IMG/VR virus record: IMGVR_UViG_3300033141_003442
Source: a virus
Strand: one strand, 5' to 3'
DNA length: 57,992 nt
Below, in pieces: positions 1-57,992 of this stretch (positions are counted from its first letter, which is position 1; every line of letters begins with the position of its first letter). Under the pieces are notes generated by a model, which was not told where the DNA came from, searched no databases, and worked only from the letters and a program-made list of their open reading frames with translations. A program made the translations under genes and the position numbers.

Positions 1-114
1 AAAATGATTGCTGGTATGTCAGAAAGAGAAAAAGAAGAGCTTGCACCAATTATTGAAGATTATGAAAGATATAAAAAATCTTTAGAACCAGGGTTAAAAT
101 CAGTTCCATTATCG
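1..114. repeat. Terminal duplication: window 1-114 is identical to 57879-57992 (circular or terminally redundant assembly overlap)
   Basis: Direct comparison of the first 114 nt with the last 114 nt; an ORF continues in frame across the junction. Confidence 0.9.
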
Positions 115-8000: not shown

Positions 8001-8324
8001 GTATTAGGATACCTTGATAAAGATTATGCACGAATAGGAAGAGGGTTTGCAAAATGGACAAAATATAATAAAGAAATAATTAAAAAGATAATTAAGGCAA
8101 AAAAAGAGAAAAGAAATGATTTAGCTCGCTTCTGGTCAACTCAGTTAATAGAGCAAAAAGCAGTTGAAACATCTATTAGAAATAGATTAGGAAGACATGA
8201 AAGTGCACCAAATTTGTTAATGATGAGCTGGTGGAAAAAAGGACAAAAAGGTTATGAAGAAGCTGTTAAAGTTATTCTCTTAAGGGAATATTTACGCAGG
8301 CTTAAACAAAGGTTAAGGAGGTAA
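2097..8324 (+). CDS. Giant protein (2075 aa): candidate tape-measure or ejected polyvalent virion protein with HExxH zincin-like motif
   Basis: Uninterrupted 6.2-kb ORF with SD; duplicated N-terminal motif PVDYDPF x2; K/E/P-rich low-complexity stretch; HEMLH motif (LAHEMLHATG); hydrophobic C-terminal segments. Confidence 0.6.
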   Translation: MPLTPVDYDPFKEEKQSSKKLTKKQKAKLVPVDYDPFASEKKQPEISAEKGIPQYLIPFSKYLGIEPTYVKPGSFLGNLLAVPHAFFEAGTTAFESPYYILKGLGKILRLPSLEKAGEWGIKGLEPTRRHHELMRKQLYVPPTSPTARLAHSISKKVAEAIGSFARPDLPVLVASPTAYGFLSGLETLGAGAPPTQALTAGIHGMIAGKTFEAVRGLSPMQALTRAGAVGATPEVARGLITGKPEQIGKGIEEGLSLGIFSALATIKTPLAREIYRNKVKAGVPREKALQTASLVEETIKSLDIDKAKSLPLKEKEIQKVEKIIREISKQIEDLPEVIKGKRGYKTEKGAKIGLRLFAKENKLPKDMDLTQHYNLEKDEAGNFVWRKITEKPTEIKPAIKPKEEVKPPEVEIPKEEKPPAKEIKEKVEEKPKKAKPYESVEPGSAEWMKIWKEHPELQKEMAEIRQKQIVEEGKKEEALPEAKPEKEPPKEKPPVVPLTKTLYENSYPIELSKASEVFPKHRLGVDYVVKLVDKNTGKVTWASLSEKRARELFPRSFEEKAKEVPKAEAEWQPVKDYSKEITEGTHVKWKYKGKEGEGIATGKTGRRKTGFVYHKVKTPEGKTKYMPWTPKAEYWIKAEKKVKPVKETKAEVKEKEPIIAISKREPNLQFEIDRIEGNKFIVKRPVIISTLKGEEGKIVETPDKYLIGREYPVENFRFVTPKEYVAEVKTKEAKIKAEREAQRETERKKQEEIKQALKAKPVTDKYYIYLKDKGFEEVEKAYPVKISGFEKYDLFAHKVGKKWKVSESKTGVAITKALPTRKEAIKQATEILNRHKEKSDEMIEDAIAYALSQTGISPRYKPISKEPTITQPKENLYEVRHPEKKTWYQIKEDPETEQWRVIKFEPYETIHEGQKVTVNKATETKFFKTLEEAKDFAQKGIIGKPVEVKISSFVKDAYLEEYGKEKGTQELSNLKNKVQKAWDILKKKYPQYANKITSITIHRMSPEDIALGGVSSIGKKGDVIVDPTHAKTEPMETLAHEMLHATGATEKEARAFEKTISKETKFYSGIPIDEIVKTVNETTKKVVDYIKQKKIEKVDKAEIEHTDRFLSFYAKQIPKVLTRLYEKEHLKTAHPETVYREALGELPTTMPEKVKKPIVNALDASREHDYKLSGYEIKVKEKLLGSYNAIYKIYGKKGIKRFFDLLSAEAHKRHAISEKQLKELPPEFQLAYKRTKEYLLNPLKEYMKFLEEKYPEGYKTEEMAKKALAEVAEKKQIENIESLYTLKQNKANLFYWEKNPNAEKIAKKKLPQIITKWNKEYQKVKELLKQAEKDYFYQPTVRTHEDIILVLKKPKKEGAKSTVVGAFEFPNERKAKQQYNRMLKGDYTAILNWFRRVGDLEAGRDFVNNIKKGDYTLKLIKFKTEPTYTPEDIPLQSVMGILSKYKGKQIKAKNLQAKAIAEDIQRFIEKFVNPISVKSFHLEKKNIPGWSLDPLDRNDILLRRVLSEKSLIEKLKLSDVITNSFAQIDPEQHPQYYKWLSDFNKYMMTPREPETTRRILSAWSMWGNAMSVIANATQSYILGPAVIIENKLNPAKFLKYETEYLRKYIESDYDSKDLAYLEWGKKNGVFAPTAWKEAMLGLTGERGGVIPKIEDIGYAGFTFVESVKNRMNTFLSVAKMLEEKGMPFEEAMKKARDITFDIHFDMNKWNTLIRKKYPRLFQTLMSFTFHSFKTLRRLIFKSFPSARERKYAIGALATFYLTHFLVGGMAATPGGELFWQMVDIPFKKVFRQSIKTYLMNEFSDKERKKLRLFIQYGLLGLAGLPSVADRIGFGYREVSKLNNFIADAMAHLAPIPVMVANQAVKAIRMTQKGYSWPTAISQQFSPTVVRNISRTLYAIKKGYLPTSYGKPLQDIYGNNFVPTGLEEIAMSFIGAIPPEQQEIYEIKEAQRKKEDIRLAHLHDITNDIVLGYLDKDYARIGRGFAKWTKYNKEIIKKIIKAKKEKRNDLARFWSTQLIEQKAVETSIRNRLGRHESAPNLLMMSWWKKGQKGYEEAVKVILLREYLRRLKQRLRR

Positions 8325-9544: not shown

Positions 9545-10815
9545 ACCCCTTTTTTACGGAAGGGGCTTTATCAGTGAGGAATAATCCTCCTGATTTAGGG
9601 CAGGCTTACAAACTGCCCAGCCCAAGAAGGAACTTTTGCCTTCAAGGGCAAAGATAGCAAGATTTTTGGAGGCATTGTAATCAGCATGGACTTGATAGCC
9701 ACAAGCCTTACAACAAAAAACAGAACCATTACGATTAGAAGATTGAATATGGCCACACTTACTACATCTTTGAGAACTGTATTTAGGGTCAACAAACCAA
9801 ACATCAATACCCTCTTCAAGTGCTTTGTATTGAATATAATTTGGGAGTTTAGAAAATGCCCAGAGAGAAACTTTATGTTTTTCAGCTTTTCTCCATTTTT
9901 TTACACTTCCTCTAATACTATTAAGATTTTCCATAGCAATTACTTGAGCACCAATCCTTTTTGCCTTCTCAACAATTTGCCGAGAAATATTATGCAAAAC
10001 CCAGTTAACAAAGCGGTTTTCTCGCCCACTCATTCTCTTAAGCAAGAGATGGGCAGAGCGAGTGCCTTTCTTTTGGATTTTGCTTCTCCGTTCGGCAAAC
10101 TGTCTTCTTTTATCATTAAGCATTCCTGCTTTAAAAAATTTGCCTATAGAGGTTACAGCAATATTCTTAACTCCCAAATCAACTCCCATAACAGTTTCAG
10201 GTTTTCTAACAAGAGCGGGTTTAATTATTGTAATATTAAGAAAGAAATCTTTGCCATTATAAGAAAGTGTAGCAGTCCTAAATTCATAATTTGTATTATC
10301 AAGTATTTTCTTTTGATAATCTCCAAGAAGATATTTGGCTTTTACTCTACCATTTACAGTAGAAAAAGTGCATTCTCTATTTTTAATAGTTACAGTTCTT
10401 TTATCAAGTTGAATTGCAGAAAAAGGCCTGAAGGTTGGTTTAGTTGCTTTTCTCTTTTTACTCCAATTGATAACACAAAGTTTAACCGCATCACAAGCTT
10501 TATTCCGAGCAGAACATATCAAATTAGCTTGAAGATTGGTTTGCTTTTTAAGTGGATAGTAAACAAGTTTATGGAGTTTAGATTTATTGATTATCTTCTT
10601 TTCAGGCTTCCATGCTTCATTTATGCAAAAATTAAGAGCAAAATTATATTGTCTAAAAGTTTCAAGAACATCTTGCTTTCTTTCTTGTGGAATATCCAGT
10701 TTTACTTTACAAGTCTTGATTATTTTTCTCATCGTGGTAAAATTATATCATGTTTATCTGAAATGTCAAGAAAGGAGTAAAAAGGCAATTCCTCCCCACC
10801 CTTACGGATGGGGTC
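9545..10815. mobile_element. Putative IS200/IS605-family (IS1341-like, tnpB-only) insertion bounded by similar subterminal hairpins
   Basis: Hairpin CCCCTTTTTTACGGAAGGGG at 9546-9565 and CCCCACCCTTACGGATGGGG at 10794-10813, same orientation, flanking tnpB; no tnpA present. Confidence 0.45.
9554..10732 (-). CDS. tnpB: TnpB-like RNA-guided endonuclease (IS200/IS605 OrfB family)
   Basis: 392 aa; RuvC-I (GVDLGVKNIAV), RuvC-II (IAMENLNS), zinc finger CSKCGH...CCKACG, RuvC-III (HADYNASKNLA). Confidence 0.85.
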   Translation of the reverse strand: MRKIIKTCKVKLDIPQERKQDVLETFRQYNFALNFCINEAWKPEKKIINKSKLHKLVYYPLKKQTNLQANLICSARNKACDAVKLCVINWSKKRKATKPTFRPFSAIQLDKRTVTIKNRECTFSTVNGRVKAKYLLGDYQKKILDNTNYEFRTATLSYNGKDFFLNITIIKPALVRKPETVMGVDLGVKNIAVTSIGKFFKAGMLNDKRRQFAERRSKIQKKGTRSAHLLLKRMSGRENRFVNWVLHNISRQIVEKAKRIGAQVIAMENLNSIRGSVKKWRKAEKHKVSLWAFSKLPNYIQYKALEEGIDVWFVDPKYSSQRCSKCGHIQSSNRNGSVFCCKACGYQVHADYNASKNLAIFALEGKSSFLGWAVCKPALNQEDYSSLIKPLP

Positions 10816-18857: not shown

Positions 18858-20774
18858 ATGAGAAAAAAGAAAGAAATAGATGTTATTTTAGAACGATATG
18901 AAGAAACAAAGTCTGCCTATAAGGATTTTTGGAAAAAGGCTGAAGAAAGCTACGGCTTTGTTTATGGCAACAAATATCAATGGTATGTAGATGGAAGCGA
19001 CAAATACTATAAAGATTTAAAAGATGCAGAGCGCCCTACTTTATCTATAAATAGAATACAGGCCAAATTAAATCTCCTTGATGGTTATTTTCTTACTACC
19101 AGATATGATATTAAATTCCGTCCACAACAAAAGAAAGACCAAGAAATAGTTGATATAGCTAATCAATTATATAAATTAGTTTGGTATCAAATAAAAGGCG
19201 ATGCGATTGAAGGAGAAGTTTTTTATAATGGCATAATTTCAGGAGAGCATTATTTTTATATTTATCCTGATTATTCTAAAGATATTATTCGTGGTGATGT
19301 AGGTCTTTGTGCTTGTTCTCCATGGGAGATAATGTTTGACCCACGAGCAAAACGATATGATAAAACAGATGCTGAATATGTCTTTAGGTCTGTATGGCTT
19401 CCCATAGAAACAATTAAACGAAGATGGCCTCAAAAAGCCAGACAAATAGATAAATTAGTTAAAGTTTTAACTATTATCTCTACTGAAGGATTTGAAGCTC
19501 TTAAACAAAGCGTTCATATTACACATCCTTACGATAGATGGAGAGATGCTTTATCACGGCCTTATAATATTAAAGCAAATGAAGGAAGAATAGATGAGTA
19601 TTGGTATAAAACTTGGGAAAAAGTTGAAATTATTGTTGATGCTATTACAAAAAAAGTCATTGATGAAAGTGAAATAGACAAAGAAACCTTGGAAATTAGG
19701 AAAAAAGCTGGAGATATAGAAGTTTTAACCAGATATATTCCTAAAGTAAGAGTTAAATATTTGTTTGGAGATATAGAGCTTAGTGATGAACCTTCTCCTT
19801 GGACAAAAGGAGAATTAGCAAAGAATTTCCCTTTTGTTCCTTTTACAATATATAAAATATATTTACCTACAGAAAAGAAATATTTAATCTGGGGTGCTGT
19901 AGAAGTTCTTAAAGATGTTCAAAGAGAGATAAATAAAAGGCATAGTTATCTTGTAGAGGCTATGCTTAATGCTCCTTATAGTGTTTTAATATATGAAGAC
20001 CAAACTTTTACTCCTGAAAGTGAAGAAGCTTTAAGCAAAAAAGGTTTCCGCCCAGGTATGTCTTTAAAAACTTATCCAGGGAAAATAAATAGTTATAAAA
20101 TTGAAAACACTGTGCAATTCCCTGTAGGTTTATTGGAATTAGAAAATTTAGCTCTTAAAGACGCTGATATAGTTTCTCCTATTATTCCGCCTTCTGGTAA
20201 AGTTAAATCTGGTTCTGCAATGCTTCAAGAAGAAAGAATTATGCTTACAGATAAAGCAAGAATATTTAATAATTTCAAAGATACAAAAATACTTTTAGCT
20301 AGATATTTATTTAATGCTATTCAGCAAACTTATGATTATGAGAAAACTTTTAAGGCTGTTGACAGCGATGAAGAATATACTATAAATCAAGTAGTTTTTG
20401 CTACCAAAACAGAGCCTCATCCACTTACTGGTTCTCCTGTTGAAACTGTTGTTAGAGATAAATTTGGCAGGCCTGTAATAGAAAAAATAGTAAATGATAT
20501 TACAAATGAAGCTCTTGATTTTGATATTATTGCTACTGAAGTTAATGCTTCACCAAGTTATAGATTAGCAGTAGCCAATGATTTATTAAAAATAATTCAG
20601 ACAACGCCAAATCCGATTTTTATTAAAATGTTGTTTGAATATCTAGATTTACCTTCCCATATTAAAAAAGAATTAGAGCAACAAATGAATGCTCAAACGC
20701 AGCAAGCATTACAACAACAAAATTTGCCACAAAATATAAGACAGTTACAAACCCCATTCAAGCAAGGAGGATAA
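18858..20774 (+). CDS. Probable portal protein
   Basis: 638 aa, size and position next to terL; general resemblance to portal proteins; not verified by search. Confidence 0.5.
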   Translation: MRKKKEIDVILERYEETKSAYKDFWKKAEESYGFVYGNKYQWYVDGSDKYYKDLKDAERPTLSINRIQAKLNLLDGYFLTTRYDIKFRPQQKKDQEIVDIANQLYKLVWYQIKGDAIEGEVFYNGIISGEHYFYIYPDYSKDIIRGDVGLCACSPWEIMFDPRAKRYDKTDAEYVFRSVWLPIETIKRRWPQKARQIDKLVKVLTIISTEGFEALKQSVHITHPYDRWRDALSRPYNIKANEGRIDEYWYKTWEKVEIIVDAITKKVIDESEIDKETLEIRKKAGDIEVLTRYIPKVRVKYLFGDIELSDEPSPWTKGELAKNFPFVPFTIYKIYLPTEKKYLIWGAVEVLKDVQREINKRHSYLVEAMLNAPYSVLIYEDQTFTPESEEALSKKGFRPGMSLKTYPGKINSYKIENTVQFPVGLLELENLALKDADIVSPIIPPSGKVKSGSAMLQEERIMLTDKARIFNNFKDTKILLARYLFNAIQQTYDYEKTFKAVDSDEEYTINQVVFATKTEPHPLTGSPVETVVRDKFGRPVIEKIVNDITNEALDFDIIATEVNASPSYRLAVANDLLKIIQTTPNPIFIKMLFEYLDLPSHIKKELEQQMNAQTQQALQQQNLPQNIRQLQTPFKQGG

Positions 20775-22337: not shown

Positions 22338-22565
22338 TTAATATTCTACTTCTTCTTTTTCCATCCAAATTCTAAATTTCCAACCACATTCGCTACAATT
22401 GAAGTTAATTGCATTGTCAGAAATATTTTTTTTATTTGGGCAAGAAAATATTATTTTAAGTTCTTCTCCTTCTGGCCAATGCCCAAATGTATATATTTTA
22501 CCACAATTTGGACACTGCCAAATAAGTTTACAAAGTTTTTCTTTCATTTTTTTCTCCTTATTCAA
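22338..22565 (-). CDS. Small Zn-ribbon protein
   Basis: CxxC pairs (CPNCGK, CSECG). Confidence 0.5.
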   Translation of the reverse strand: MNKEKKMKEKLCKLIWQCPNCGKIYTFGHWPEGEELKIIFSCPNKKNISDNAINFNCSECGWKFRIWMEKEEVEY

Positions 22566-23094
22566 TATTTAACAAATATCTTTTAATCCCATTATTAATT
22601 AAAAATGCTGCTTTTATTTGGGCATCGGAAGAATGTAATGGGAGAAGGGGATTATCTATAAAACCTACTTCAATTAAAACAGCAGGCATTTTGGTTTTCC
22701 TTAATACATAAAAATTTCCTTCTTTAATTCCTCTGAACTTGCCTGGGACAATCTCATCAATAAATGTAGCAATATTATCTGCTAGTTTAGCACTTTTAAT
22801 TGAACCAGGATAAATCCAGATTTCCTCTCCCTTAGCATTATGTTTAGGAGAAGCATTAACATGAATACTAACAAAGGCATCTGCTTTTACACTATTTGCA
22901 ATAAAAACCCTATCTCGCAATGGCACATATATATCAGCCGTTCTGGTATAAATACAGTTTACCATATTGGATAAAAAACCACCCAAATATAATGCAATAG
23001 GCAAAACTATATCTTTTTCTTTGTATCCTGCATAAACAGCCCCTGGGTCTTTACCTCCATGCCCTGGGTCAATTACTATGGTGTATTTTTTCAT
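22558..23094 (-). CDS. N-acetylmuramoyl-L-alanine amidase (Amidase_3-type endolysin)
   Basis: N-terminal IVIDPGHGGKDPGA and downstream Zn-ligand pattern typical of Amidase_3 / CwlV-like enzymes. Confidence 0.8.
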   Translation of the reverse strand: MKKYTIVIDPGHGGKDPGAVYAGYKEKDIVLPIALYLGGFLSNMVNCIYTRTADIYVPLRDRVFIANSVKADAFVSIHVNASPKHNAKGEEIWIYPGSIKSAKLADNIATFIDEIVPGKFRGIKEGNFYVLRKTKMPAVLIEVGFIDNPLLPLHSSDAQIKAAFLINNGIKRYLLNIE

Positions 23095-24493: not shown

Positions 24494-24809
24494 TTATTTC
24501 CTCCTTTTTTAAATATTCTAATGTAAACAATTTTGCACAATCAGGGCATAAAATCATAACTGGCATATCCAAGGAAAATAAATCACCCTCTTCAAATGCT
24601 TGATCAAATTCTTCTTCAGTTAATTCCCATGTTACGTAAAAACATTGTTCGATAGGATACCAAAGCCGTCTAGGATGTAAAATATGGTCATTATCACAAC
24701 GTAACTTTTTAGGCAATTTACCTTCCTTATATTCTTTCGTTTCTGTTACTGGTTTGGGTTTGCTCCACCTACCACGCCTTGGACCGCAAATGAAGCCTTT
24801 AATCTCCAT
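24471..24809 (-). CDS. Zn-ribbon-containing hypothetical protein
   Basis: CGPRRG ... CPDC cysteine pairs. Confidence 0.4.
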   Translation of the reverse strand: MEIKGFICGPRRGRWSKPKPVTETKEYKEGKLPKKLRCDNDHILHPRRLWYPIEQCFYVTWELTEEEFDQAFEEGDLFSLDMPVMILCPDCAKLFTLEYLKKEEINEYTLSF

Positions 24810-25353
24810 TTACTTTTCCTCCTTTAACTTTCCATTTTCCCTCTTTTCTATCATAATAATATCCCTGTTTTTTTAGATAAATTGCCAAATTAATAGAATG
24901 AACTTTACAAACTTTACTGAATTTTGCCATGCTTCCAAATTGTTTCAAAACTGCTTCTATTCCGCCATATTTTTCAAATGCTTCGCTAGCTAAACCATGT
25001 GGAGCGTTATTATATATTGGCGGTTTGATTTTAATACCCATTTTTTTAAGTCCTTCCTGTATTGTATGATAATCAAATCCCCATAATTTCCCCATTTCTA
25101 TCGTGCCTTTTTCTTTGTATTGCTTCCTTAATTCTTCCCTTACCTTTTCTGCATCACACTCATAATGATAAAATGCGTTCCAAAGAAAAGATCCTCTGGA
25201 ATATCCAGATAAAGCACAAGCAAGGGCATCTTTGACTTTTTTAGCAAGAGTAGGATTAAGCTTGTCAGCCCACTTAAATAATTCCTTGCCTTCTTGATTT
25301 GAGATATTTAGTTTAAGTTGTTTCCACATTTTTTCTCCTCTCCCAATCTTCAT
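24799..25353 (-). CDS. Hypothetical protein (184 aa)
   Basis: ORF in co-directional block. Confidence 0.45.
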   Translation of the reverse strand: MKIGRGEKMWKQLKLNISNQEGKELFKWADKLNPTLAKKVKDALACALSGYSRGSFLWNAFYHYECDAEKVREELRKQYKEKGTIEMGKLWGFDYHTIQEGLKKMGIKIKPPIYNNAPHGLASEAFEKYGGIEAVLKQFGSMAKFSKVCKVHSINLAIYLKKQGYYYDRKEGKWKVKGGKVNGD

Positions 25354-25561
25354 TTACAAGCAACTGCAACATTTTAACGGTTCTTGAATTTTTAAACTTT
25401 ACAGGCTTTTTCCTTCTACTAGCATACCTTATATACTGGTTTAACCAACATCCAACACAATACCTTCCCTTTGGAATAGCTGGCTTTCCACAGAGGATAC
25501 ATCTACCCTCTTCCATCATTTTCCTCTGCCATTTTAACTGTCTTGATATAATTTCTTTCAT
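25313..25561 (-). CDS. Zn-ribbon protein; N-terminus paralogous to the adjacent 25564..25755 gene
   Basis: CILCGK...CVGCW; N-terminus MKEIISRQLKW resembles MKEIISSQIKW of the neighbouring ORF. Confidence 0.45.
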   Translation of the reverse strand: MKEIISRQLKWQRKMMEEGRCILCGKPAIPKGRYCVGCWLNQYIRYASRRKKPVKFKNSRTVKMLQLLVNEDWERRKNVETT

Positions 25562-25563
25562 AA

Positions 25564-25755
25564 TTACCTCCTATAATATTCTCTCTTAGCAAGTTCAATC
25601 ACTAATTGGGTAAATTTCTTTTCAAAATTCTCAATAAAATTCTTTATTTCAAACATATCTTTTTTAAGCTCTTCAAGCTCTTTTTTTATTTCTTCTTTAG
25701 ATTCTTGCTCTATCTTCTTCGGCCATTTAATTTGGCTTGAGATAATTTCCTTCAT
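25564..25755 (-). CDS. Small coiled-coil protein; N-terminus paralogous to 25313..25561
   Basis: Shared N-terminal motif MKEIIS-Q-KW. Confidence 0.4.
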   Translation of the reverse strand: MKEIISSQIKWPKKIEQESKEEIKKELEELKKDMFEIKNFIENFEKKFTQLVIELAKREYYRR

Positions 25756-25777
25756 GATTGTCCTCCATTTAATTTAT

Positions 25778-26083
25778 TTACCATTTCATCCAACTCTCTA
25801 TTACTAACTGGATTCTTCTCAATACTGCCTTTCTACAATCATTCCAACCATCTTTGTATGCACGAAGTTCGTTTTCAGGAATTTTCCAATCTTTTTTCAT
25901 TTCTTTAAGATGTGCTTCAGGGGGCAGGAAGTCAAAAAAACAGCAATGTGCATAAACATTCATTATTTCTCTTACAAATGCTTCCCAACTAAAATTTCTA
26001 CTCCAAATTTTTCTTAATTCTTCTTCAAAATCCATTGATGTCTTTACTACAATAATCTTTCCTTCATTAACTTCTTGTCCCAT
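25778..26083 (-). CDS. Hypothetical protein (101 aa)
   Basis: ORF with SD. Confidence 0.45.
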   Translation of the reverse strand: MGQEVNEGKIIVVKTSMDFEEELRKIWSRNFSWEAFVREIMNVYAHCCFFDFLPPEAHLKEMKKDWKIPENELRAYKDGWNDCRKAVLRRIQLVIESWMKW

Positions 26084-26159
26084 TTTTTCCTCCTAGGCTC
26101 AAGACAAATAGTTATCTTTTTTCCTTAATAATATCCCAATCTCGCTTATACTCATCATA

Positions 26160-26423
26160 CTAAGCAAATATGAGGGTTGAGATATCATCAATTTTCTTAT
26201 ATCTCTTTTGTAAATACTTCTGTATTTTTTCAAATACAAACGGATAAAATAATCTTTCTTTGTCTTTATTCGTTAATTTTCTAAATTCTTTTTTGGAATA
26301 AGTTGAATTAATGATTATTATTCTTTTATGAGTTCTAACAGTATCATAAATAAATGATGGATTTTGTAAGTAATTTTTTTGACCAGCAACTCTAACTTTT
26401 ATTCCGAAAGTAATTCGCATCAT
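26160..26423 (-). CDS. Hypothetical protein (87 aa)
   Basis: ORF in co-directional block. Confidence 0.35.
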   Translation of the reverse strand: MMRITFGIKVRVAGQKNYLQNPSFIYDTVRTHKRIIIINSTYSKKEFRKLTNKDKERLFYPFVFEKIQKYLQKRYKKIDDISTLIFA

Positions 26424-27057
26424 GGCCTCCTATAATCATTAATAATTTAATTACCAATAACTCAATATACCTATCCCACTCTTTCTTTCTTCTAAGATGG
26501 TGATAACAAACTGTGCATAAACCTGCACTATGGTGTTTTCTCAATCTTTTACAATGGGTGCAAATTATCTTATTACCTCTTGTTACCTCTCTTATTCCAT
26601 ATCTTATTTTTTTATCCCGCTTGAGATATCCATAACAATGGACGCACATCCCTTTGCTTTTATGAATACGCAGTTGCCCACATCTCTTACAGATAATAAA
26701 ACGGATATGCCTTCTTCTGGGGTCATTAAAAAGAATTTCTTTGAAGTAATACTGAGGCTCGCCTAATAATATGGCAAAAAGGTATGTATCATCCTCAATT
26801 ATTTTGGGTATTAATGCTAATTTATCATCAAAAGTCATTTTCTTAATCTTAGCAACCATTTTTTCTATCAGCTTCATTTTGTTATTTTTTCTGGTGTTCA
26901 TTCCAACAAATTTAATCCTCGTCCATAACTCCATAATTTCTCCACTAACTCTTTTCTCTAATATCCAATCTAGTTGTCTCTCCGTAAAACATGCCTTTGC
27001 CGTGCTTAAATCAATAGGTGCATCAAGTTGTATTGATGGCTGTGGGCAAATCATCAC
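26392..27057 (-). CDS. Multi-Zn-ribbon protein
   Basis: Repeated CxxC...CxxC units (CKRCGQ...CVHCYGY; CTHCKR...CTVCYHH). Confidence 0.5.
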   Translation of the reverse strand: MMICPQPSIQLDAPIDLSTAKACFTERQLDWILEKRVSGEIMELWTRIKFVGMNTRKNNKMKLIEKMVAKIKKMTFDDKLALIPKIIEDDTYLFAILLGEPQYYFKEILFNDPRRRHIRFIICKRCGQLRIHKSKGMCVHCYGYLKRDKKIRYGIREVTRGNKIICTHCKRLRKHHSAGLCTVCYHHLRRKKEWDRYIELLVIKLLMIIGGHDANYFRNKS

Positions 27058-27441
27058 TCACCAGATATATTTACCTGCTATATCTACCAAAGCAAGAAAC
27101 ACATCATCCTTCACCTTTTCTCTTGGGTCTAATTTTTCATAGGGAACAAGGTCTGGATGTATTTTCCTATCTGGGTCATAAACTTTGCCATACTTCCATC
27201 CCATTTCCTTATACTTTCTCATCCAAGAGTCATGAGCAGTTTTGGGGTCAGAAAATGCCCGTTTCCCTGTAATTAAATCATCAACAAGCTCAATAAATTG
27301 TGATTTAAACTCACCTTCTCGTTCATTCCAAGGTTTAGGGATTACTGGGCAATTAAGCATCCTTGCATGTAGTCTTGCTCCTTCATAAACAAAGATTGCC
27401 CTACGAATTGCCTTACTCATTTCTAATGCATCTTTTTTCAT
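27058..27441 (-). CDS. RyR-domain (ryanodine-receptor-like domain) protein
   Basis: Motif AHDSWMRKYKEMGWKYGKVYDPDRKIHPDLVPYEKL fits the RyR-domain pattern known from phage proteins. Confidence 0.45.
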   Translation of the reverse strand: MKKDALEMSKAIRRAIFVYEGARLHARMLNCPVIPKPWNEREGEFKSQFIELVDDLITGKRAFSDPKTAHDSWMRKYKEMGWKYGKVYDPDRKIHPDLVPYEKLDPREKVKDDVFLALVDIAGKYIW

Positions 27442-27489
27442 TTGTTCCTCCTTATACTCGTTGTCTTAATTGCTTAACTTTTCTTGCAT

Positions 27490-27750
27490 TCATTTTTTGT
27501 CCTCTCCAATTTTGTATTTTGGCTCAGTAATTTCCAACCCTCTTTCAAGGCTAACTTCTATCCATGCCCTCTTTGCTTCTTGCAATCTTTTTAGAGCTTC
27601 TTCTCTAGTCTTGCCCTCAGCTCCACAACCAGGTAATTCAGGTATTTCTGCACCAAAATATTTCTCGCCATTGTATTCAGTGTATTTGAATATTCTGATA
27701 GTATAAGGCAAATTTAAATAATATTTTAAATCTTTCTTTAAAACTCCCAT
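27490..27750 (-). CDS. HicB-like (UPF0150 family) protein, orphan antitoxin-type domain
   Basis: YTEYNGEKYFGAEIPELPGCGAEGKTREEALKRLQEAKRAWIE matches the HicB/UPF0150 signature; no HicA partner seen. Confidence 0.6.
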   Translation of the reverse strand: MGVLKKDLKYYLNLPYTIRIFKYTEYNGEKYFGAEIPELPGCGAEGKTREEALKRLQEAKRAWIEVSLERGLEITEPKYKIGEDKK

Positions 27751-28169
27751 ACCACATATTCTCCTTTATAAAACTTCCTTCTAATTATTTTTCCAATCAA
27801 ATGTAAACTATCACATCCCAGCATAAAAATATCCACATGCCCATCTTCTCTTTTAACCCATATTTGCACCATGTCCTCTTTGCCCCAAGGCACTGTTTGC
27901 AAGGCTTTCTTTTTTTCTCCTAGACCTGTATGTAGTGTAGCTTGTATCCATAAAGTAGGCTTATTCTCTTTTTTAGCAATTAAATCCACACAACCAAATA
28001 CATCGTTTCGTTGGCTAATATAGATTTGTTTCTTTTTACCAAACTTATCTTTTGTAACAATCATCCGTCCCACAGGTTTCTGGTTATGAATAATCCACCC
28101 TAATTCCTCAAGCCATTTTTTAATCCAGTCTTGAAAGGCTAGTCCTTTTTTTCTGCGAGTGTCTTTCAT
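27738..28169 (-). CDS. Hypothetical protein (143 aa); possible nuclease-like fold, unassigned
   Basis: Start-overlap coupled to the HicB-like gene. Confidence 0.45.
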   Translation of the reverse strand: MKDTRRKKGLAFQDWIKKWLEELGWIIHNQKPVGRMIVTKDKFGKKKQIYISQRNDVFGCVDLIAKKENKPTLWIQATLHTGLGEKKKALQTVPWGKEDMVQIWVKREDGHVDIFMLGCDSLHLIGKIIRRKFYKGEYVVWEF

Positions 28170-28712
28170 TTATTTCTCCCTACACAATTTTTCTTTCAAA
28201 GCTTTATAATCTTCATCAGATACTTCAATTTCTATACCATCAATAATTATTGTATGCTTTTTAGGAATGGGGCGGGCATACTCATAAAATACACAGTCAA
28301 AACTCTTACCTTCTCTAAATCTATTCTCATCAAGTGAGTGCACGCATACATAAGGACGACTACTTCCATCAGCATAAGCTACATAAATTCTTTTTTTCCA
28401 TTCTCCATCAGGCTGAGTAATTTCAATACCAGACCGACTAACTTCAATAAGTTCTCCAAATTTAAAGGCGTAACCTTCAAACATTTCATCAATCCAACAG
28501 CACCGCCCATTGTCTTCTTCAATATGATAATAGTCGTCCCTGACTTCTCTTATAGTTACAACTTGTCCGCAAAATTTCCTGTTCGTCTTGAGAAATAGGA
28601 ATGATTTCCCAAGAAAGCTAATGTTATCACATACCAATTTATTTCCTCTTAACATTGCTTTCCACTGACGAACCCTTACTCTATTTCCTACTTTATAACG
28701 CATTCTATTCAT
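28170..28712 (-). CDS. Hypothetical protein (180 aa)
   Basis: ORF in co-directional block. Confidence 0.45.
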   Translation of the reverse strand: MNRMRYKVGNRVRVRQWKAMLRGNKLVCDNISFLGKSFLFLKTNRKFCGQVVTIREVRDDYYHIEEDNGRCCWIDEMFEGYAFKFGELIEVSRSGIEITQPDGEWKKRIYVAYADGSSRPYVCVHSLDENRFREGKSFDCVFYEYARPIPKKHTIIIDGIEIEVSDEDYKALKEKLCREK

Positions 28713-29640
28713 CCTCCTTCTCTCTTAATATTTCTTTTAATTGTCCTCTATGATGACAATCCTCTAAATGAACTAAACGACCATTCTCTTCAAACTGCAA
28801 GTAAATTTCTTTACCCTCTGTATAATATTCGCTCTGCCTAACCTTTGTAAATTGCAGGATAGGATATTCTTTCCGTTTATCTTCGCCGTCATACAGAATT
28901 TCAAAACCATAGGCAGGCCGCTGCAATGAGCTTTCCCTGCCATAAGGTTTTAACTTCCCATATTCTTCTTTGGCCTGCCAGAATAAAAAGATTAAACTTC
29001 TATGTCCTTCCTGTAACTTACGAATAAACTTATTTACTCTATCATACCTGCCAGTTAAATCTGCCCAGTCCCAAATGATTATGCTGTTTTTACTTATTGC
29101 TAAAGGTTTCATGAAAGGGTCTGTAATGGGAATAAATCTAACTTTTCCTTGTTCTTCCCATTCAATCATTTGTTCTACATCAACCAGTTTAGCAAATCTG
29201 TAAGCGATATTTTCCTTACATTCAGAATAATAGTAATGGACGGTCAATCCTCTTTGTAAATAAAAAAGAGCTATGTTAATAGCAAAGTAACTCTTTCCCT
29301 GTCCATAACTCGCATAAATCAAAATGATGTCTGAAGGAAACAATAAACATTTATATCTAATGCCAAACGGTAAGGGTATCTTAAGCTCTGGCTTTAACAT
29401 ATCTTGGAAAGAAGTGGGCGTGGTATGCTTGATGATGCGGTAATCTCTTGAATTGACTTTCTCTACCTTGCCAAATTCAACAGCCTTGTTCAATATTTTA
29501 TATGCCGTTGAATATTGACTGCTGTTTAGTCCTAAAGTTTGCATCATCTCTTTTATAGTAAAAACAAATTCACCGTCATAGTCTTGGAAACTGTCTAAAT
29601 ACTCCAAGACCAACTTTAAAACAGAACCTTTCTGCGTCAT
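28705..29640 (-). CDS. RecA-superfamily P-loop ATPase (DnaB-C/KaiC-like) with N-terminal wHTH-like region; putative replication protein
   Basis: Walker A ASYGQGKSYF; Walker B-like IIIWDWADL. Confidence 0.5.
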   Translation of the reverse strand: MTQKGSVLKLVLEYLDSFQDYDGEFVFTIKEMMQTLGLNSSQYSTAYKILNKAVEFGKVEKVNSRDYRIIKHTTPTSFQDMLKPELKIPLPFGIRYKCLLFPSDIILIYASYGQGKSYFAINIALFYLQRGLTVHYYYSECKENIAYRFAKLVDVEQMIEWEEQGKVRFIPITDPFMKPLAISKNSIIIWDWADLTGRYDRVNKFIRKLQEGHRSLIFLFWQAKEEYGKLKPYGRESSLQRPAYGFEILYDGEDKRKEYPILQFTKVRQSEYYTEGKEIYLQFEENGRLVHLEDCHHRGQLKEILREKEDE

Positions 29641-29663
29641 TCAGCTCAAGTCCAGATGCCACT

Positions 29664-29816
29664 TTAGTCTTTGATTTTAAAATATTGCTTCAATGCCTGC
29701 CTTATTATATAGCTCCGATTGACATCTTTTTTCTCGCATTCTTTATCAATCCTTACCAAATAATCAAGAGGTAAAGAAACAGTTACCGTGGTATTTCTTC
29801 CTCGTTGCATTTTCAT
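29664..29816 (-). CDS. Ribbon-helix-helix (CopG/Arc-like) DNA-binding protein (50 aa, missed by ORF track)
   Basis: Manual translation gives MKMQRGRNTTVTVSLPLDYLVRIDKECEKKDVNRSYIIRQALKQYFKIKD; ATGA overlap with the upstream stop. Confidence 0.5.
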   Translation of the reverse strand: MKMQRGRNTTVTVSLPLDYLVRIDKECEKKDVNRSYIIRQALKQYFKIKD

Positions 29817-30454
29817 TTTGTTTTGTCCTCCTTATCAATTTTAATATATTCTTTTAAAGCCTGTCTTGTTAATTGTTCAATTAACATTCTTCCAACTGGC
29901 ATTCTGATAGGATGTGGTATCACAAAAGTTTCTTGATATATATCAAGGGCTACAGTAAGAGCCTGTCTTAATTCAAAAGGAGTAAGTGAACAATCCAAAA
30001 TAAGATTTAACATAAAATCAACCACTTCTTTAAATTCATCATCATAAAGATACCTTTCTCTTGGATTATCCTTTCTAATTGCATTTCTTTCATTATTAAA
30101 TTGTTTTATACAAAATGAGCTAAAATTATATGTATGTCTTATATCTTCTAATTGCTTTTCATCCAATACCATCAAATACTTTTCTGTATCTATATCAAAC
30201 ATCATACTTTTCAATGTTTCGCCTGCAACTTCCAATGCTCCAAATCCATTTTCTTCTATTTCTTGAGCGATTAATTTCATAATCTCACGCAGTATTCTCA
30301 CTCTTGACCTACGCTTTATTTCTTCTTCAAATTGTGCATACTCATATTTATTAAATGTTTCTATTATTTTAAGAGCAAATATTCTTTCAATACTAACACC
30401 AAAACTTTCATTTCTAATTCTTAAATCCAAATAATCATCTATTTTCTTACTCAT
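29813..30454 (-). CDS. Hypothetical protein (213 aa)
   Basis: ORF in co-directional block. Confidence 0.45.
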   Translation of the reverse strand: MSKKIDDYLDLRIRNESFGVSIERIFALKIIETFNKYEYAQFEEEIKRRSRVRILREIMKLIAQEIEENGFGALEVAGETLKSMMFDIDTEKYLMVLDEKQLEDIRHTYNFSSFCIKQFNNERNAIRKDNPRERYLYDDEFKEVVDFMLNLILDCSLTPFELRQALTVALDIYQETFVIPHPIRMPVGRMLIEQLTRQALKEYIKIDKEDKTK

Positions 30455-30713
30455 AAGCTTTCCTTTATTAAAATAAGTTTTTCTTTTATTTCAAGTTTGC
30501 TTAATAAATTGAAATAATGTTTATTCTTCATTTCCTCCTTTAATCTTCTTTAATTCCATTGGGTGCAAATAAAAAATGTTATCACCTATCTTTACTTTAA
30601 TTTTGACTATTGTGTTGAAAAAGGAAATACCTCCAATTACTTTCGCCGTCTTCCCTATATGGGCAGGGCAAAACTTCAACAATGTCTCCTATTTCAAAAG
30701 GGTGTTCCATTTT

Positions 30714-31130
30714 TTAAAGCCCTTCAAAACTACTTGGTATGTCATTCTCTGTTACAATTGGATTTATGGTCTTTTCTGGCAAAGATTTAACCCACTTTAT
30801 AAATTTTTTTCTTAAAGTATTAGGTATCCCAAACCAATTATCCTTATCACTCCACCCGTAAGTTGCTATTCCAAAAAGTTTTTTACTAGTGTTTGGGTCA
30901 TCAACAATTACAAATATAGCATCGTAAGACAATTTAAAGCGTTCTATATATAAATAAAAAGAGTTACCTTCTAATTCTCCATTATAAACAGAAATTGTTT
31001 TGCCTTCAATTCTCAAATAAATCCGATTTTTATATAATTCTATTAATGTGCCATCTAAGCATTTGATAATCGGCACGGTATTCTTCCCATTTTCATCCCA
31101 TGCCATATAGTCCCAATTAAAAGAAGACAT
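30714..31130 (-). CDS. Hypothetical protein (138 aa)
   Basis: ORF with SD AAGGAGGA. Confidence 0.5.
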   Translation of the reverse strand: MSSFNWDYMAWDENGKNTVPIIKCLDGTLIELYKNRIYLRIEGKTISVYNGELEGNSFYLYIERFKLSYDAIFVIVDDPNTSKKLFGIATYGWSDKDNWFGIPNTLRKKFIKWVKSLPEKTINPIVTENDIPSSFEGL

Positions 31131-31228
31131 TTTATCCTCCTTAATACAATAATTTAATTTCGTGAAAAAGTTTGAATTTGCTAACTTCTCTATAATCCAT
31201 TAAAAACTTAACCAATTTTACCTCGTTA

Positions 31229-31241
31229 TTCAAACTTTGAA
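31229..31241. promoter_or_regulatory. Perfect 13-bp palindrome TTCAAACTTTGAA (operator-like) upstream of gene 30714..31130
   Basis: Palindrome read directly; related half-site AGTTTGAATTT at 31168-31179; overlaps a candidate minus-strand -35 (TTGAAT). Confidence 0.4.
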
Positions 31242-31354
31242 TTTCACCACTTTAGCTAAATATCCAATATATCATTCTTAAAAGCACCTTTTAAAATTTT
31301 GCTCAAAATGTATGAGGGTAATAGTAATAAATAATAAATATATATAATAACTTA

Positions 31355-31537
31355 CTATGTTTCATCCTTTTCAAGCTCGTCAATAATTCTTTTAATATCA
31401 AGTAATGTATCTGCACAAATATTTACTACTCCATTACCTTGGTATGTAGCTGTATAAGTTGCACTACTTGCTGTTAATTCTCTATTGTCTTCTAGATAGA
31501 TATGATAGCCTTTATAAACTTCTATAAAGGTTTTCAT
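31355..31537 (-). CDS. Hypothetical protein (60 aa)
   Basis: ORF track. Confidence 0.35.
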   Translation of the reverse strand: MKTFIEVYKGYHIYLEDNRELTASSATYTATYQGNGVVNICADTLLDIKRIIDELEKDET

Positions 31538-31878
31538 TTAAAAGCTCCTTTATATTTGCTTTCAATTAGTAATATTTCCTCATAAGTTTCTATTGCAACC
31601 TTAAAATAATCTTCTATCTTTTGAATGTTCTCATATCTCGTTTTAAAATTACTTATTATTCTTGTAAGGTCTTCAGAGCTAAATGGTGTTGACTTTGGAC
31701 TATGTTTAAGTTCTATTTTAATAAGACCAAGAGAAGTTGGAATTATTTGTGTTTTAATTCTCATCTCCCATATTTTATCTTGCATTTCTTCAACAAATAT
31801 ATCTACATTGGCTTTTATCCATTGTTCTTTTGCATTATAATTACCTACACTATCAATCAAGTCCTTTGTTATTTTCAT
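31534..31878 (-). CDS. Hypothetical protein (114 aa)
   Basis: ORF with SD GGAGGAG; preceded by a roughly 150-nt structured leader. Confidence 0.5.
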   Translation of the reverse strand: MKITKDLIDSVGNYNAKEQWIKANVDIFVEEMQDKIWEMRIKTQIIPTSLGLIKIELKHSPKSTPFSSEDLTRIISNFKTRYENIQKIEDYFKVAIETYEEILLIESKYKGAFK

Positions 31879-32044
31879 TTATTAAACTCCTCCATATTTT
31901 GTTTCTGAGCGAGGTTTAATGGCTTAGACAATGTTTTTATATGTCTTTTGGGTTGAAACTAGCTCAGCGGTTAAATATGTGCGTCTGAGAGCGGATGAGA
32001 TGTTGTTTAGATACCCGATTTTAAATTGGCTTTTCATTATCTTA

Positions 32045-36012: not shown

Positions 36013-37260
36013 TTAAAATAATTCTTCTAATTCTTTTGCTTTGGTGTCAATCATCAAGTAGATTTCTGTAGCTTCCGCCTCATCCGAAATATCATAAATA
36101 CTATTATAACCCTTTTCTTTCAAAACCTCATTCACTAGTTCACGGTCATAATTTGACAATTGCTCTTCTAATTCCACAAGCCATTGTGCGGGAGGTTGAG
36201 CTTTCTTTTCTGGTTTAGCCTTTTTAGGTTTTGGAGGAGAAGTAGCAGGCTTATTCTTTGCTTCCCATTCCTTAAATTTTTCTACAAACCTATCTATTTT
36301 CTTTGTAGCTTTTTCTTTTACATATTCCATCGAGCAATTAACACTCTTTGCTACTGTTTCAATGTATTCTTCTACTCTTTCTTTATCTAATTTTTTTTTA
36401 GCAATCACATCATCAAAAAATATTATTCGTTCAGGTTCAGGAGCTTGGTCTTCAATTTGTTTGGGTTTGTCGTCCTTTTTTTCTTTTCCAGCCTCCATAT
36501 CCTTTATATCAATCACTTTACCTTGGAAAGTTACTTCTTCCTTTTTAGGTTCTTCTTCAATTGTAGACAATACAATGTCCTCTTCTTCCTCAGAAATTGC
36601 TATATCTAATTCAGGTGTTTTGCGTTTCATTTTAAGCATTTTCAAAACTGCACTCTTTCTCATCATAGCTTCAGGCCATAAATGCCAAGGACTATCTTTA
36701 GTTCCAGCTTGTTCAGCCTTTCTCCATGAAAGAGACATTTTTCTTCTTTTTTCAATTTCTTCCATTCTGATTATATCGAAATCCACTCTATCATCCTTTT
36801 TCCAAAGAGCGTAAGCACAAACAGCTTTCCCTCTGTCTTTTAATGCAATTTTATGGTGCAAATAAGCATCAGTGCCCAATTGATAATTAAACTCATCATT
36901 CTCATAAACTACATGGGCTTCCACTTCAGCATCTGTTACTCTGTTTACCAACTCAATAAGACCTTGATAACCAATTTGGGCATTGCATTCTATTGGATGT
37001 CCTTGTTTTCTATTATTACGCCTAGGTATCAAATAAACATTATCTCCGCCTGGTAGTAATCCCCACTCTGCACATTTCAATAATGCACTGAGCAAACTTT
37101 CAGGAGTGCATTGTTGCAATTGAGGGTTTTTGAAAAGAGCGTTCCAAAAGGCTGCAATCAGGACATCTTTCTTCATTCCTTTAGGTAGCACTTTTAACTT
37201 CTCACTTGTTTCAGGAGAAACTAATTTGGCCTTGATTTCTGCTAGTTGATTTTTTTTCAT
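36013..37260 (-). CDS. recT: RecT-family single-strand annealing recombinase
   Basis: N-terminal region (TPESLLSALLKCAEWGLLPGGDNVYLIPRRN) fits the RecT family; acidic/basic C-terminal tail. Confidence 0.65.
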   Translation of the reverse strand: MKKNQLAEIKAKLVSPETSEKLKVLPKGMKKDVLIAAFWNALFKNPQLQQCTPESLLSALLKCAEWGLLPGGDNVYLIPRRNNRKQGHPIECNAQIGYQGLIELVNRVTDAEVEAHVVYENDEFNYQLGTDAYLHHKIALKDRGKAVCAYALWKKDDRVDFDIIRMEEIEKRRKMSLSWRKAEQAGTKDSPWHLWPEAMMRKSAVLKMLKMKRKTPELDIAISEEEEDIVLSTIEEEPKKEEVTFQGKVIDIKDMEAGKEKKDDKPKQIEDQAPEPERIIFFDDVIAKKKLDKERVEEYIETVAKSVNCSMEYVKEKATKKIDRFVEKFKEWEAKNKPATSPPKPKKAKPEKKAQPPAQWLVELEEQLSNYDRELVNEVLKEKGYNSIYDISDEAEATEIYLMIDTKAKELEELF

Positions 37261-46347: not shown

Positions 46348-47352
46348 ATGGCAGATTGGAAACCTGGGAGTTCAATGTATGCAAAGAGGTATGCCACATC
46401 TACCTTTATTGAATATAAGACTGGTATTTGGTGGGACAAGCATGGATATGTGGGGAAGGATGAGAACAATGTAATACAGTTAATAGAGGATTTCACGAGG
46501 GAACCTGGTAATAGTATGAGGTTTTATTTGACTATGGTGCCTGAAGGAGACCCGATTGTTGATGATGATACCTTAGAAGGCAACGAGATGAATATTACCA
46601 ATTACTATCAGGACGTAACGCTTCATGAGTATCGTGGTGGTATTCGTCTTTATGGTAATATGGAAGAGAAGGCGGTTGCCTTTAATATGAGGGAGACAGC
46701 GAGGAGAGTATTAGGAATTTGGAAGAGGCAGGAAACGGGTGATGCTATATTTAGTGCATTAGCCAGTTCTCCGACCAAGGTTATATATGGTGGGGATGCT
46801 ACTTCTACTTCTACTTTAGAGTCTAGTGATTTATGCAATCTTAAGCTTTTATTGCATGCTGCTACTTATGCGGAAAGTGTAGCTGACCCTCGTATTCCTC
46901 CGTTAATAATAGATGGTGAGGAGAAGTATATAGTTATTTTGCACAAGCATTGTTTATCTGATATGCAGTTATATGATAGTGATTTTCGTGCATTAGGGCA
47001 GAGTGTATATCAGAGAAATAGTGATAATCCTTTGATTAAGAGGGCTGCTTTTGTTTACAATAATCTTATTGTTTATTCTACTGATAAGATACCCACTGCT
47101 GATAATTGGGGTTCTGGCGGTGATGTTCATGGAGCTACCAATTTATTGCTTGGTGCTCAAGCAGCTCTTTTAGGTAGGGGCAAGACCAAAGGTGGAGTTA
47201 TTCCTCAATTTGATTGGAGAGAGCAGACTTGGGATTATGGGCATAAATATGGTATTGCTGTTGGTGAAACCAGAGCATTAGCCAAGACTGTTTTTAATTC
47301 CAAGGACTTTTCTACTGTAGCTATTAGGACTGCTGCTAATAGTTATGCTTAA
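46348..47352 (+). CDS. Probable major capsid protein
   Basis: 334 aa; very strong SD (TATAGGAGGTAAAGAAAG-ATG); first gene after the late promoter; size typical of capsid proteins; not verified by search. Confidence 0.45.
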   Translation: MADWKPGSSMYAKRYATSTFIEYKTGIWWDKHGYVGKDENNVIQLIEDFTREPGNSMRFYLTMVPEGDPIVDDDTLEGNEMNITNYYQDVTLHEYRGGIRLYGNMEEKAVAFNMRETARRVLGIWKRQETGDAIFSALASSPTKVIYGGDATSTSTLESSDLCNLKLLLHAATYAESVADPRIPPLIIDGEEKYIVILHKHCLSDMQLYDSDFRALGQSVYQRNSDNPLIKRAAFVYNNLIVYSTDKIPTADNWGSGGDVHGATNLLLGAQAALLGRGKTKGGVIPQFDWREQTWDYGHKYGIAVGETRALAKTVFNSKDFSTVAIRTAANSYA

Positions 47353-57572: not shown

Positions 57573-57992
57573 ATGCCAGCACCAGTAGCTGCAGCAGGAA
57601 TAATTGGAGCGAGCACTTTAGGTGCAGCAGCTTTGAGTAAAGGAGGCCAAAAAGCAGGTAAAGTTCCTAGACCTTCAGCAGAAGAAAGGTCACTTCAAAA
57701 AGCTTTATTACCTTTATTATTATCTTCTTTATATGAAAAACCTGAAGATGCTTTACGTGCTCCTAAAAGTTGGACACAAGAAGAATGGGAAGCTTATTTA
57801 AGGGAAACAGGTATCCCTGTTGATTTAGTTAAATCAGGTATTTTAAGTAAGTATAAAAAAACAATTGATGAGATTGAGAAAATGATTGCTGGTATGTCAG
57901 AAAGAGAAAAAGAAGAGCTTGCACCAATTATTGAAGATTATGAAAGATATAAAAAATCTTTAGAACCAGGGTTAAAATCAGTTCCATTATCG
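57573..57992 (+). CDS. N-terminal portion of the junction-spanning ORF (continues at window position 115-480)
   Basis: ATG 57573 with SD AGGGGGTGA; open to the window end, in frame with ORF 4..480 through the duplicated 114 bp. Confidence 0.6.
   Translation, partial: MPAPVAAAGIIGASTLGAAALSKGGQKAGKVPRPSAEERSLQKALLPLLLSSLYEKPEDALRAPKSWTQEEWEAYLRETGIPVDLVKSGILSKYKKTIDEIEKMIAGMSEREKEELAPIIEDYERYKKSLEPGLKSVPLS

Follow-up and report, generated by a model that had tools for sequence, protein, structure and literature searches.

Introduction

The protein gp78 of Mycobacterium phage DyoEdafos was named RyDEP in a bioRxiv preprint dated 29 May 2026, which describes it as an inverting glycosidase opening the ribose-ribose bond of two cyclic forms of adenosine diphosphate ribose (ADPR), 2'cADPR and 3'cADPR, to yield ADPR (PMC13232231). 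This protein defeats Thoeris and is active alone, both in vitro and in vivo; it uses a dyad of H75 and D117, the adenine is stacked by W78, the phosphates are contacted by H100, a dimer is formed via helices alpha1 and alpha4, and the flanking NARP1 enzymes take up its product (PMC13232231). Binding of the signals was seen with six of eight other phage homologues assayed, cleavage with none; sponge action (tight binding without cleavage) was shown in vivo for two homologues, and H4 and H7 are the only ones named as characterised sponges (PMC13232231). No published sequence signature splits RyDEP enzymes from sponges, H1, H2 and H4-H8 being non-catalytic yet keeping the dyad. The description of RyDEP dates from 2026 and covers only a single mycobacteriophage enzyme plus eight homologues that were assayed. 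Here we analyze a RyDEP-family gene and the HicB-like gene that adjoins it in the IMG/VR virus record IMGVR_UViG_3300033141_003442, a stretch of 57,992 nucleotides referred to below as the window. We consider it fairly probable that these are two separate counter-defence genes occupying one variable accessory slot in the early/replication block of a complete bacteriophage genome.

On the antitoxin side, Dmd of phage T4 counters RnlA and LsoA. Orphan DarG-like antitoxins (anti-DarTG1) of T4-like phages provide another precedent of counter-defence (PMC11825919). A role in phage defence has been argued for HicA domains (PMC10865869) and solitary antitoxin genes of viruses have been proposed, on bioinformatic grounds, to serve in counter-defence (PMC10504277).

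The RyDEP-family gene

The 127-aa protein Table 1 can be assigned to the RyDEP family with high confidence. It matches the Pfam family RyR (PF02026) with 42.2 bits for a cut-off of 27.4 (E 1e-10), which bears out the RyR-domain call made in a preliminary description of this DNA, as well as PHROG 5154 (2.6e-18), and its top PDB match is the RyDEP structure 35tm (35tm_A, 2e-35). Its best match in a cultured phage is DyoEdafos gp78, with 48% identity over 114 of 127 residues (E 8e-43). The preliminary description also stated that RyR-domain proteins of phages have no established function; this statement is outdated, as gp78 hydrolyses 2'cADPR and 3'cADPR and other homologues are sponges (PMC13232231). 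In DyoEdafos, gp78 sits between Prs-like and Nampt-like genes.

In the alignment, residues H75, W78, H100 and D117 of gp78 correspond to H70, W73, H95 and D112 of the 127-aa protein. H70 and W73 do not vary among 32 homologues, in which H95 and D112 are conserved at 90% or more. By correspondence with gp78, H70 and D112 are proposed to be the catalytic dyad, and W73 and H95 the ligand residues. Uncultured sediment phages carry 76 RyDEP homologues at 45-92% identity. The glycosidase-like subfamily is therefore common in these phages, where it also occurs without NARP1.

The sequences of the preprint supplement (H3 being left out) were used to place the 127-aa protein among the characterised homologues. 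It is about 44-48% identical to the glycosidase compared to 21-30% to H1, H2 and H4-H8, and it has in common with the glycosidase the motifs AIFxYEGARL, PxIPxPW..R..FKxQF, AHDSW and HPD[LM]VP. H1 and H4-H8 display HPC instead of HPD, which is found in H2. All four key residues are retained in H1, H2 and H4-H8. Since the 127-aa protein groups by sequence with the one homologue proven to be an enzyme, a glycosidase is favoured, and hydrolysis appears somewhat more likely than sequestration.

A sponge that holds 2'cADPR and 3'cADPR tightly without cleaving them, like H4 and H7, has in our opinion a little less than an even chance: the identities given above and the subfamily motifs common to the enzyme only (HPD where H1 and H4-H8 have HPC; AIFxYEGARL in the N-terminal helix) speak against it, whereas it is favoured by the retention of the four key residues in H1, H2 and H4-H8, by the eight other homologues, all non-hydrolysing and six of them signal-binding, that are described as highly conserved (PMC13232231), and by a window devoid of NARP1. 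A tblastn search of the window with Adps and Namat of DyoEdafos gave nothing below E 0.1, so no NARP1 genes were found that would use the ADPR product. As judged from its relatedness to gp78, the 127-aa protein likely has an anti-Thoeris function.

The HicB-like gene and its relatives

The 86-aa protein is the toxin-binding (UPF0150, partial RNase H-like) N-terminal domain of a HicB antitoxin alone. Its open reading frame (ORF) contains EIPELPGCGAEG and the protein matches UPF0150 (PF21748, 37.1 bits) and HicB_lk_antitox (PF15919, 32.0 bits), both above the Pfam curated cut-offs, so that the UPF0150/HicB-fold call of the preliminary description holds in a profile search. It also matches phrog_497, annotated as "HicB-like" (1.4e-12), and its PDB profile matches are TTHA0281 (2dsy) and HicB (6g1c, 6g1n and 4p78). 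The AlphaFold2 model (pLDDT 81) has a strand-strand-strand-helix arrangement and its top Foldseek matches are 2dsy and HicB N-terminal domains from HicAB complexes (probability 1.0). The protein ends nine residues past the N-terminal domain and has no ribbon-helix-helix (RHH) motif. The N-terminal domain is the part of HicB that wraps and binds HicA. Comparison of 17 RHH-less close relatives (60-86% identity) revealed 29 invariant columns and short tails that vary freely and are mutually unrelated.

No HicA, canonical or divergent, was found in the six frames of the whole window with E. coli HicA and HicAs of related loci as queries. On re-inspection, the neighbours of the gene are the Hjc-like resolvase and the RyDEP gene, in agreement with the earlier remark that no HicA partner can be recognised. 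Since there is neither an RHH or helix-turn-helix (HTH) domain nor an adjoining hicA, this gene is not part of an autoregulated toxin-antitoxin module. The 143-aa ORF located upstream was considered as a non-canonical HicB-dependent toxin or as a HicA and was rejected: its product has the fold of an Hjc resolvase and is conserved where the HicB-like gene is absent.

A scan of metagenome contigs provided 80 related HicB-like loci. A hicA-type gene is found directly upstream of 57 copies, all of which (57/57) carry the RHH motif (FSGKFLLRIPAKLH...SLNQY), and none of the 15 RHH-less copies is accompanied by a hicA-type gene. Toxin-gene loss and loss of the DNA-binding domain are perfectly correlated across the compared loci. 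One third of the RHH-less copies (5/15) lie directly behind a phage Hjc-like gene, as in the window.

The nearest cassette-borne HicBs (L108, L109, L112 and L117) share 71-79% identity with the 86-aa protein over the N-terminal domain, and a conserved protein of about 90 aa is encoded upstream as their partner. This partner reaches only a sub-threshold score for the Pfam family HicA_toxin (23.5 bits for a cut-off of 27) and its family has no match in a PDB sequence-profile search. When compared by hhalign with an alignment of canonical HicAs built from related loci, the family gave a probability of 95.5% (E 1.6e-8). The histidine of the canonical GSH motif is not conserved (GS[VI]R is found instead), and an HEPHG motif is conserved. 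These partners may constitute an undescribed class of HicA. A profile scan of genome contigs returned nothing with the RHH-less alignment and returned relatives with a full-length HicB query. The full-length relatives, in genomes and metagenome-assembled genomes (MAGs), are nearly all bacterial (Syntrophobacter, Desulfobacterales, Desulfosarcina, Bacillota and Dehalococcoidia), and the family of the partner was found in genomes of Desulfobacterota, Bacillota and Dehalococcoidia. In L118, the hicA-like/hicB cassette (5718-6606) directly follows a gene encoding a 1079-aa type IIG (N6_Mtase/Eco57I) restriction-modification protein (2426-5665), a setting that is defence-island-like. Another hicA-like/hicB cassette is located near a ParM/Alp-type actin gene.

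The identity of 71-79% to the N-terminal domains of cassette-borne HicBs exceeds what an ancient divergence in function would lead one to expect, and the HicB-like gene is dispensable in close relatives (L003) and resides beside a counter-defence gene in a slot whose tenants are swapped in and out, as is typical of accessory genes. It is therefore possible, but on the whole unlikely, that the HicB-like protein is unrelated to toxins and that its UPF0150 fold serves, for example, in nucleic-acid binding or in regulation during replication. Such a role would fit its best single PDB match, which is the stand-alone UPF0150 protein TTHA0281, its fold, which in the weaker Foldseek matches resembles double-stranded RNA-binding domains, and the location of its gene in a replication/recombination block next to the Hjc-like resolvase gene. 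It is very unlikely that the gene is a decaying remnant of a phage hicAB addiction or superinfection-exclusion module that has lost its toxin. Some phages do carry a complete hicAB, such as Paenibacillus phage Vegas, whose gp81/gp82 are the closest match in a cultured phage (47% identity), but the short form is intact and conserved, with its 29 invariant columns, in at least 10 distinct contigs, it is duplicated in tandem in L023, no toxin remnant is detectable, and in every case it is precisely the RHH domain that the truncation removes.

The accessory slot

The slot was compared in phages that share its flanks, i.e. the genes encoding the 311-aa, 180-aa and Hjc-like proteins on one side and the 221-aa zinc-ribbon protein on the other. 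Related phages carry in this slot either gene, both or neither Table 1, and the zinc-ribbon gene is conserved at its far side in L003, L015, L017, L023 and L105. In L023, the HicB-like genes of the tandem (529-831 and 857-1186) are located upstream of the RyDEP gene, which suggests a diversification of the putative decoy. In another lineage (L019 and L025), pyrF- and pyrE-like genes separate the HicB-like gene from RyDEP, over a distance of about 1.6 kb. In L019, a viral contig of 152 kb, the interval between the two genes (4418-5741) encodes orotidine monophosphate decarboxylase-like and phosphoribosyltransferase-like proteins.

A HicB-like gene was found within 6 kb in only four of the 80 RyDEP-anchored loci of IMG/VR, all four being among the 16 closest RyDEPs. 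The preliminary description took the pairing of the two genes as suggestive, though unproven; that the pairing as such is meaningful is not supported, given this low co-occurrence and close relatives that hold either gene alone. Its guess of an anti-defence locus named the right category. Because of this pattern of presence and absence, and because gp78 works alone, we consider the two genes as independent tenants of one accessory hot spot and not as an obligate pair; the locus fits an "anti-defence locus" and not a "functional pair". That both proteins form one functional module, either a complex or an antitoxin-toxin-like pair in hicBA order, is hardly tenable and already largely refuted by the presence/absence pattern, since, although the genes adjoin or are less than 2 kb apart in the same order in several flanking contexts (window, L015, L023, L027, L114, L019/L025), 76 of the 80 RyDEP loci lack a HicB-like gene within 6 kb (including that of DyoEdafos, where gp78 alone suffices), RyDEP is present in only four of the 80 HicB-anchored metagenome loci, L003 has a RyDEP (92% identical) and no HicB-like gene, and L017, L105 and L124 have a HicB-like gene and no RyDEP. 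The slot between the Hjc-like and zinc-ribbon genes is a natural place to seek more anti-defence genes.

The locus and the virus genome

Table 1. Features of the locus, of the virus genome and of related loci. Positions are those of the window unless a locus is named.
Feature	Position or loci	Strand	Evidence or remark
HicB-like gene, 86 aa	27490..27750	minus	Pfam, PHROG, PDB profile, Foldseek
RyDEP-family gene (RyR/R12 domain), 127 aa	27058..27441	minus	PF02026, gp78 homology
Spacer of 48 nt with the RyDEP ribosome-binding site	27442..27489	minus	AAGGAGG, 5 nt ahead of ATG
Hjc-like protein with PD-(D/E)xK Holliday-junction-resolvase fold, 143 aa	27738..28169	minus	upstream edge of the slot
Protein with two CxxC...CxxC zinc-ribbon units, 221 aa	26392..27057	minus	downstream edge of the slot
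P22-type portal	18858-20774
N-acetylmuramoyl-L-alanine amidase (Amidase_3) endolysin	22558-23094	minus	E 3.6e-47
RecT	36013-37260
Capsid protein	46348-47352
Slot with HicB-like and RyDEP	window, L027, L114
Slot with HicB-like and RyDEP	L015		upstream context different
Slot with two HicB-like copies and RyDEP	L023
Slot with RyDEP only	L003		RyDEP 92% identical; plus unrelated small ORFs
Slot with HicB-like only	L017, L105, L124
HicA-like family of about 90 aa	L108-L118, L126-L155 (e.g. L112 562-837); genome loci L185-L205 (e.g. L186 4719-4997)		hicA position, ahead of HicB-RHH-coiled-coil genes

The HicB-like and RyDEP genes are co-directional, each is preceded by a Shine-Dalgarno sequence, and the Hjc-like gene overlaps the start of the HicB-like gene by 13 nt. 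In profile scans, the 221-aa protein matched zinc-ribbon and HNH-like families only weakly. Promoter and terminator scans of positions 25500-31500 gave nothing above the shuffled expectation; the two genes therefore probably share a transcript, as part of a long block on the minus strand. A minus-strand gene (29664-29816) immediately upstream of the 311-aa gene encodes a 50-aa CopG-type RHH protein (RHH_1, 2.1e-9), probably a small regulator of the transcription of this block.

The first and last 114 bases of the window (1-114 and 57879-57992) are identical, and this terminal repeat indicates that the viral genome, of about 57.9 kb, is complete. Besides the proteins listed in Table 1, it encodes beta-helix tailspike-like proteins and an SU10-type adaptor. 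The murein amidase endolysin points to a bacterial host. A protein identical to the HicB-like protein is recorded at NCBI in a MAG labelled "Candidatus Hodarchaeales archaeon". The reading of the window as an Asgard virus that this label suggests was rejected in view of the murein amidase endolysin, RecT and P22-type portal, and also of the full-length HicB relatives, nearly all of which are bacterial. The label is probably a binning artefact or error, and the contig that carries it is unfit as evidence for Asgard viruses or for Asgard toxin-antitoxin genes. Since positions 24500-32000 have no nucleotide match among INPHARED phages, this virus has no cultured relative in that collection.

Other features of the genome were observed. 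A gene of TnpB/IS605 OrfB type (9554-10732; Cas12f1-like_TNB 4.4e-22, OrfB_IS605 1.4e-9) is located on the minus strand inside a plus-strand block; in the relative L017, a TnpB-type gene located near the replication block has a small RHH gene as its neighbour. An ORF of 2075 aa (2097-8324), preceded by one of 530 aa, belongs to the plus-strand block, and no Pfam family was individually mapped to it in the scans. A batch scan of the minus-strand ORFs at 21749-44750 gave one Pfam match to UPF0175, an antitoxin-like family (7.7e-5), which could not be placed among ten re-scanned small ORFs. If present, a second orphan antitoxin-like gene would bear on the decoy idea set out below.

Discussion

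Our analysis suggests, for each of the two genes, a separate way of opposing host defence. By analogy with gp78 and its homologues, we infer that the 127-aa protein acts on cyclic ADPR signals by RyDEP-type binding or cleavage. It would bind the Thoeris messengers 2'cADPR and 3'cADPR in a pocket containing W73 and H95; the H70/D112 dyad would then cut the ribose-ribose glycosidic bond, giving linear ADPR, or the signal would be held as by a sponge. With the signal cleaved or held, the Thoeris effector would stay off. The 86-aa protein, presumably made early in infection, would be a decoy antitoxin silencing a host RNase of the HicA type, notably one of the divergent HicA family found as the partner of its closest full-length relatives, and would thereby prevent a HicAB-type abortive-infection response from firing. 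This neutralisation of a host HicA-type toxin is plausible in view of the architecture of the protein, of what is known of HicB structure and of the DarG-like precedent. The idea that an orphan antitoxin could act on a host HicA was already put forward in the preliminary description; it is strengthened by the pattern of domains and neighbours, while the action itself continues to be inferred. The two genes would be neighbours through a common anti-defence hot spot and not through joint action.

Several points weigh against this interpretation. None of the eight other RyDEP homologues is catalytic, yet the text calls them highly conserved in sequence (PMC13232231); a conserved dyad is therefore no proof of hydrolysis. 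This source is the first version of a preprint, without peer review. The absence from the window of the NARP1 genes Adps and Namat, which would use the ADPR product, points the same way. Concerning the HicB-like protein, (i) we found in the literature no experimental HicB-type decoy for any phage, (ii) no function is known for stand-alone UPF0150 proteins, TTHA0281 among them, and (iii) the toxicity of the partners of about 90 aa is putative since their family is devoid of the canonical GSH histidine. Lastly, searches of NCBIfam and PADLOC gave no match for the HicB-like gene, the RyDEP gene or the third gene of the locus.

A broader proposition, about which we are rather doubtful, is that toxin-less HicB N-terminal domain proteins devoid of RHH form a distinct family of phage counter-defence proteins. 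They would be directed against undescribed HicA-like toxins of about 90 aa, in which the GSH histidine is replaced and whose partners in Desulfobacterota and other anaerobes are HicB-RHH-coiled-coil antitoxins, and the HicB-like gene, by its recurrent position just upstream of RyDEP, would be the mark of a portable anti-defence islet. If this is true, the remaining small ORFs that take turns in the slot would be worth mining for further inhibitors. The HicB-like gene is an unusually clear candidate for a protein-binding antitoxin decoy, as its predicted target family can be named from sequence. Furthermore, with a RyDEP locus free of NARP1, it can be tested cleanly whether gp78 alone hydrolyses or whether the entire subfamily does.

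Among the described systems, the 127-aa protein is closest to DyoEdafos gp78. Both are phage proteins encoded in an early/middle gene region and made of a single R12/RyR domain of about 130 aa, with an identity of 48% over nearly the full length and with conservation of the four functional residues and of the sequences of the dimerisation helices alpha1 and alpha4. Unlike gp78, the 127-aa protein is encoded outside any NARP1 (Adps-Namat) operon and its activity is predicted; the host of DyoEdafos is a mycobacterium, whereas the host of the present virus is probably an anaerobic sediment bacterium. With the sponges H4 (from a Ruegeria phage) and H7 (from a Pectobacterium phage), it has in common the Pfam family, the four key residues and the expected evasion of Thoeris. 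However, its identity to these two proteins is just 21-26%, the N-terminal half of the sponge homologues differs (motif IAR..H.AN..YC...GD, HPC replacing HPD), and extra N-terminal domains are found in H7 and in several further homologues.

The 86-aa protein has the strand-strand-strand-helix N-terminal domain of the HicBs of type II HicAB systems (6g26 from B. pseudomallei, HicB3 of Y. pestis (4p78) and 6hpb from E. coli) but, unlike them, it has no RHH/HTH DNA-binding domain and no adjoining hicA. It resembles the stand-alone UPF0150 protein TTHA0281 of Thermus thermophilus (2dsy), its best profile and Foldseek match, in size (about 87 aa) and fold, but TTHA0281 is a cellular protein and their identity is merely about 30%. 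As for the orphan antitoxins of phages, it is a toxin-less antitoxin homologue that is encoded by a phage and is close to a host-type antitoxin. Whereas the DarG-like protein is an enzyme that reverses damage, the 86-aa protein, a HicB N-terminal domain from another antitoxin family, would bind the toxin. Overall, both genes belong to known kinds of phage counter-defence and do not represent a new system.
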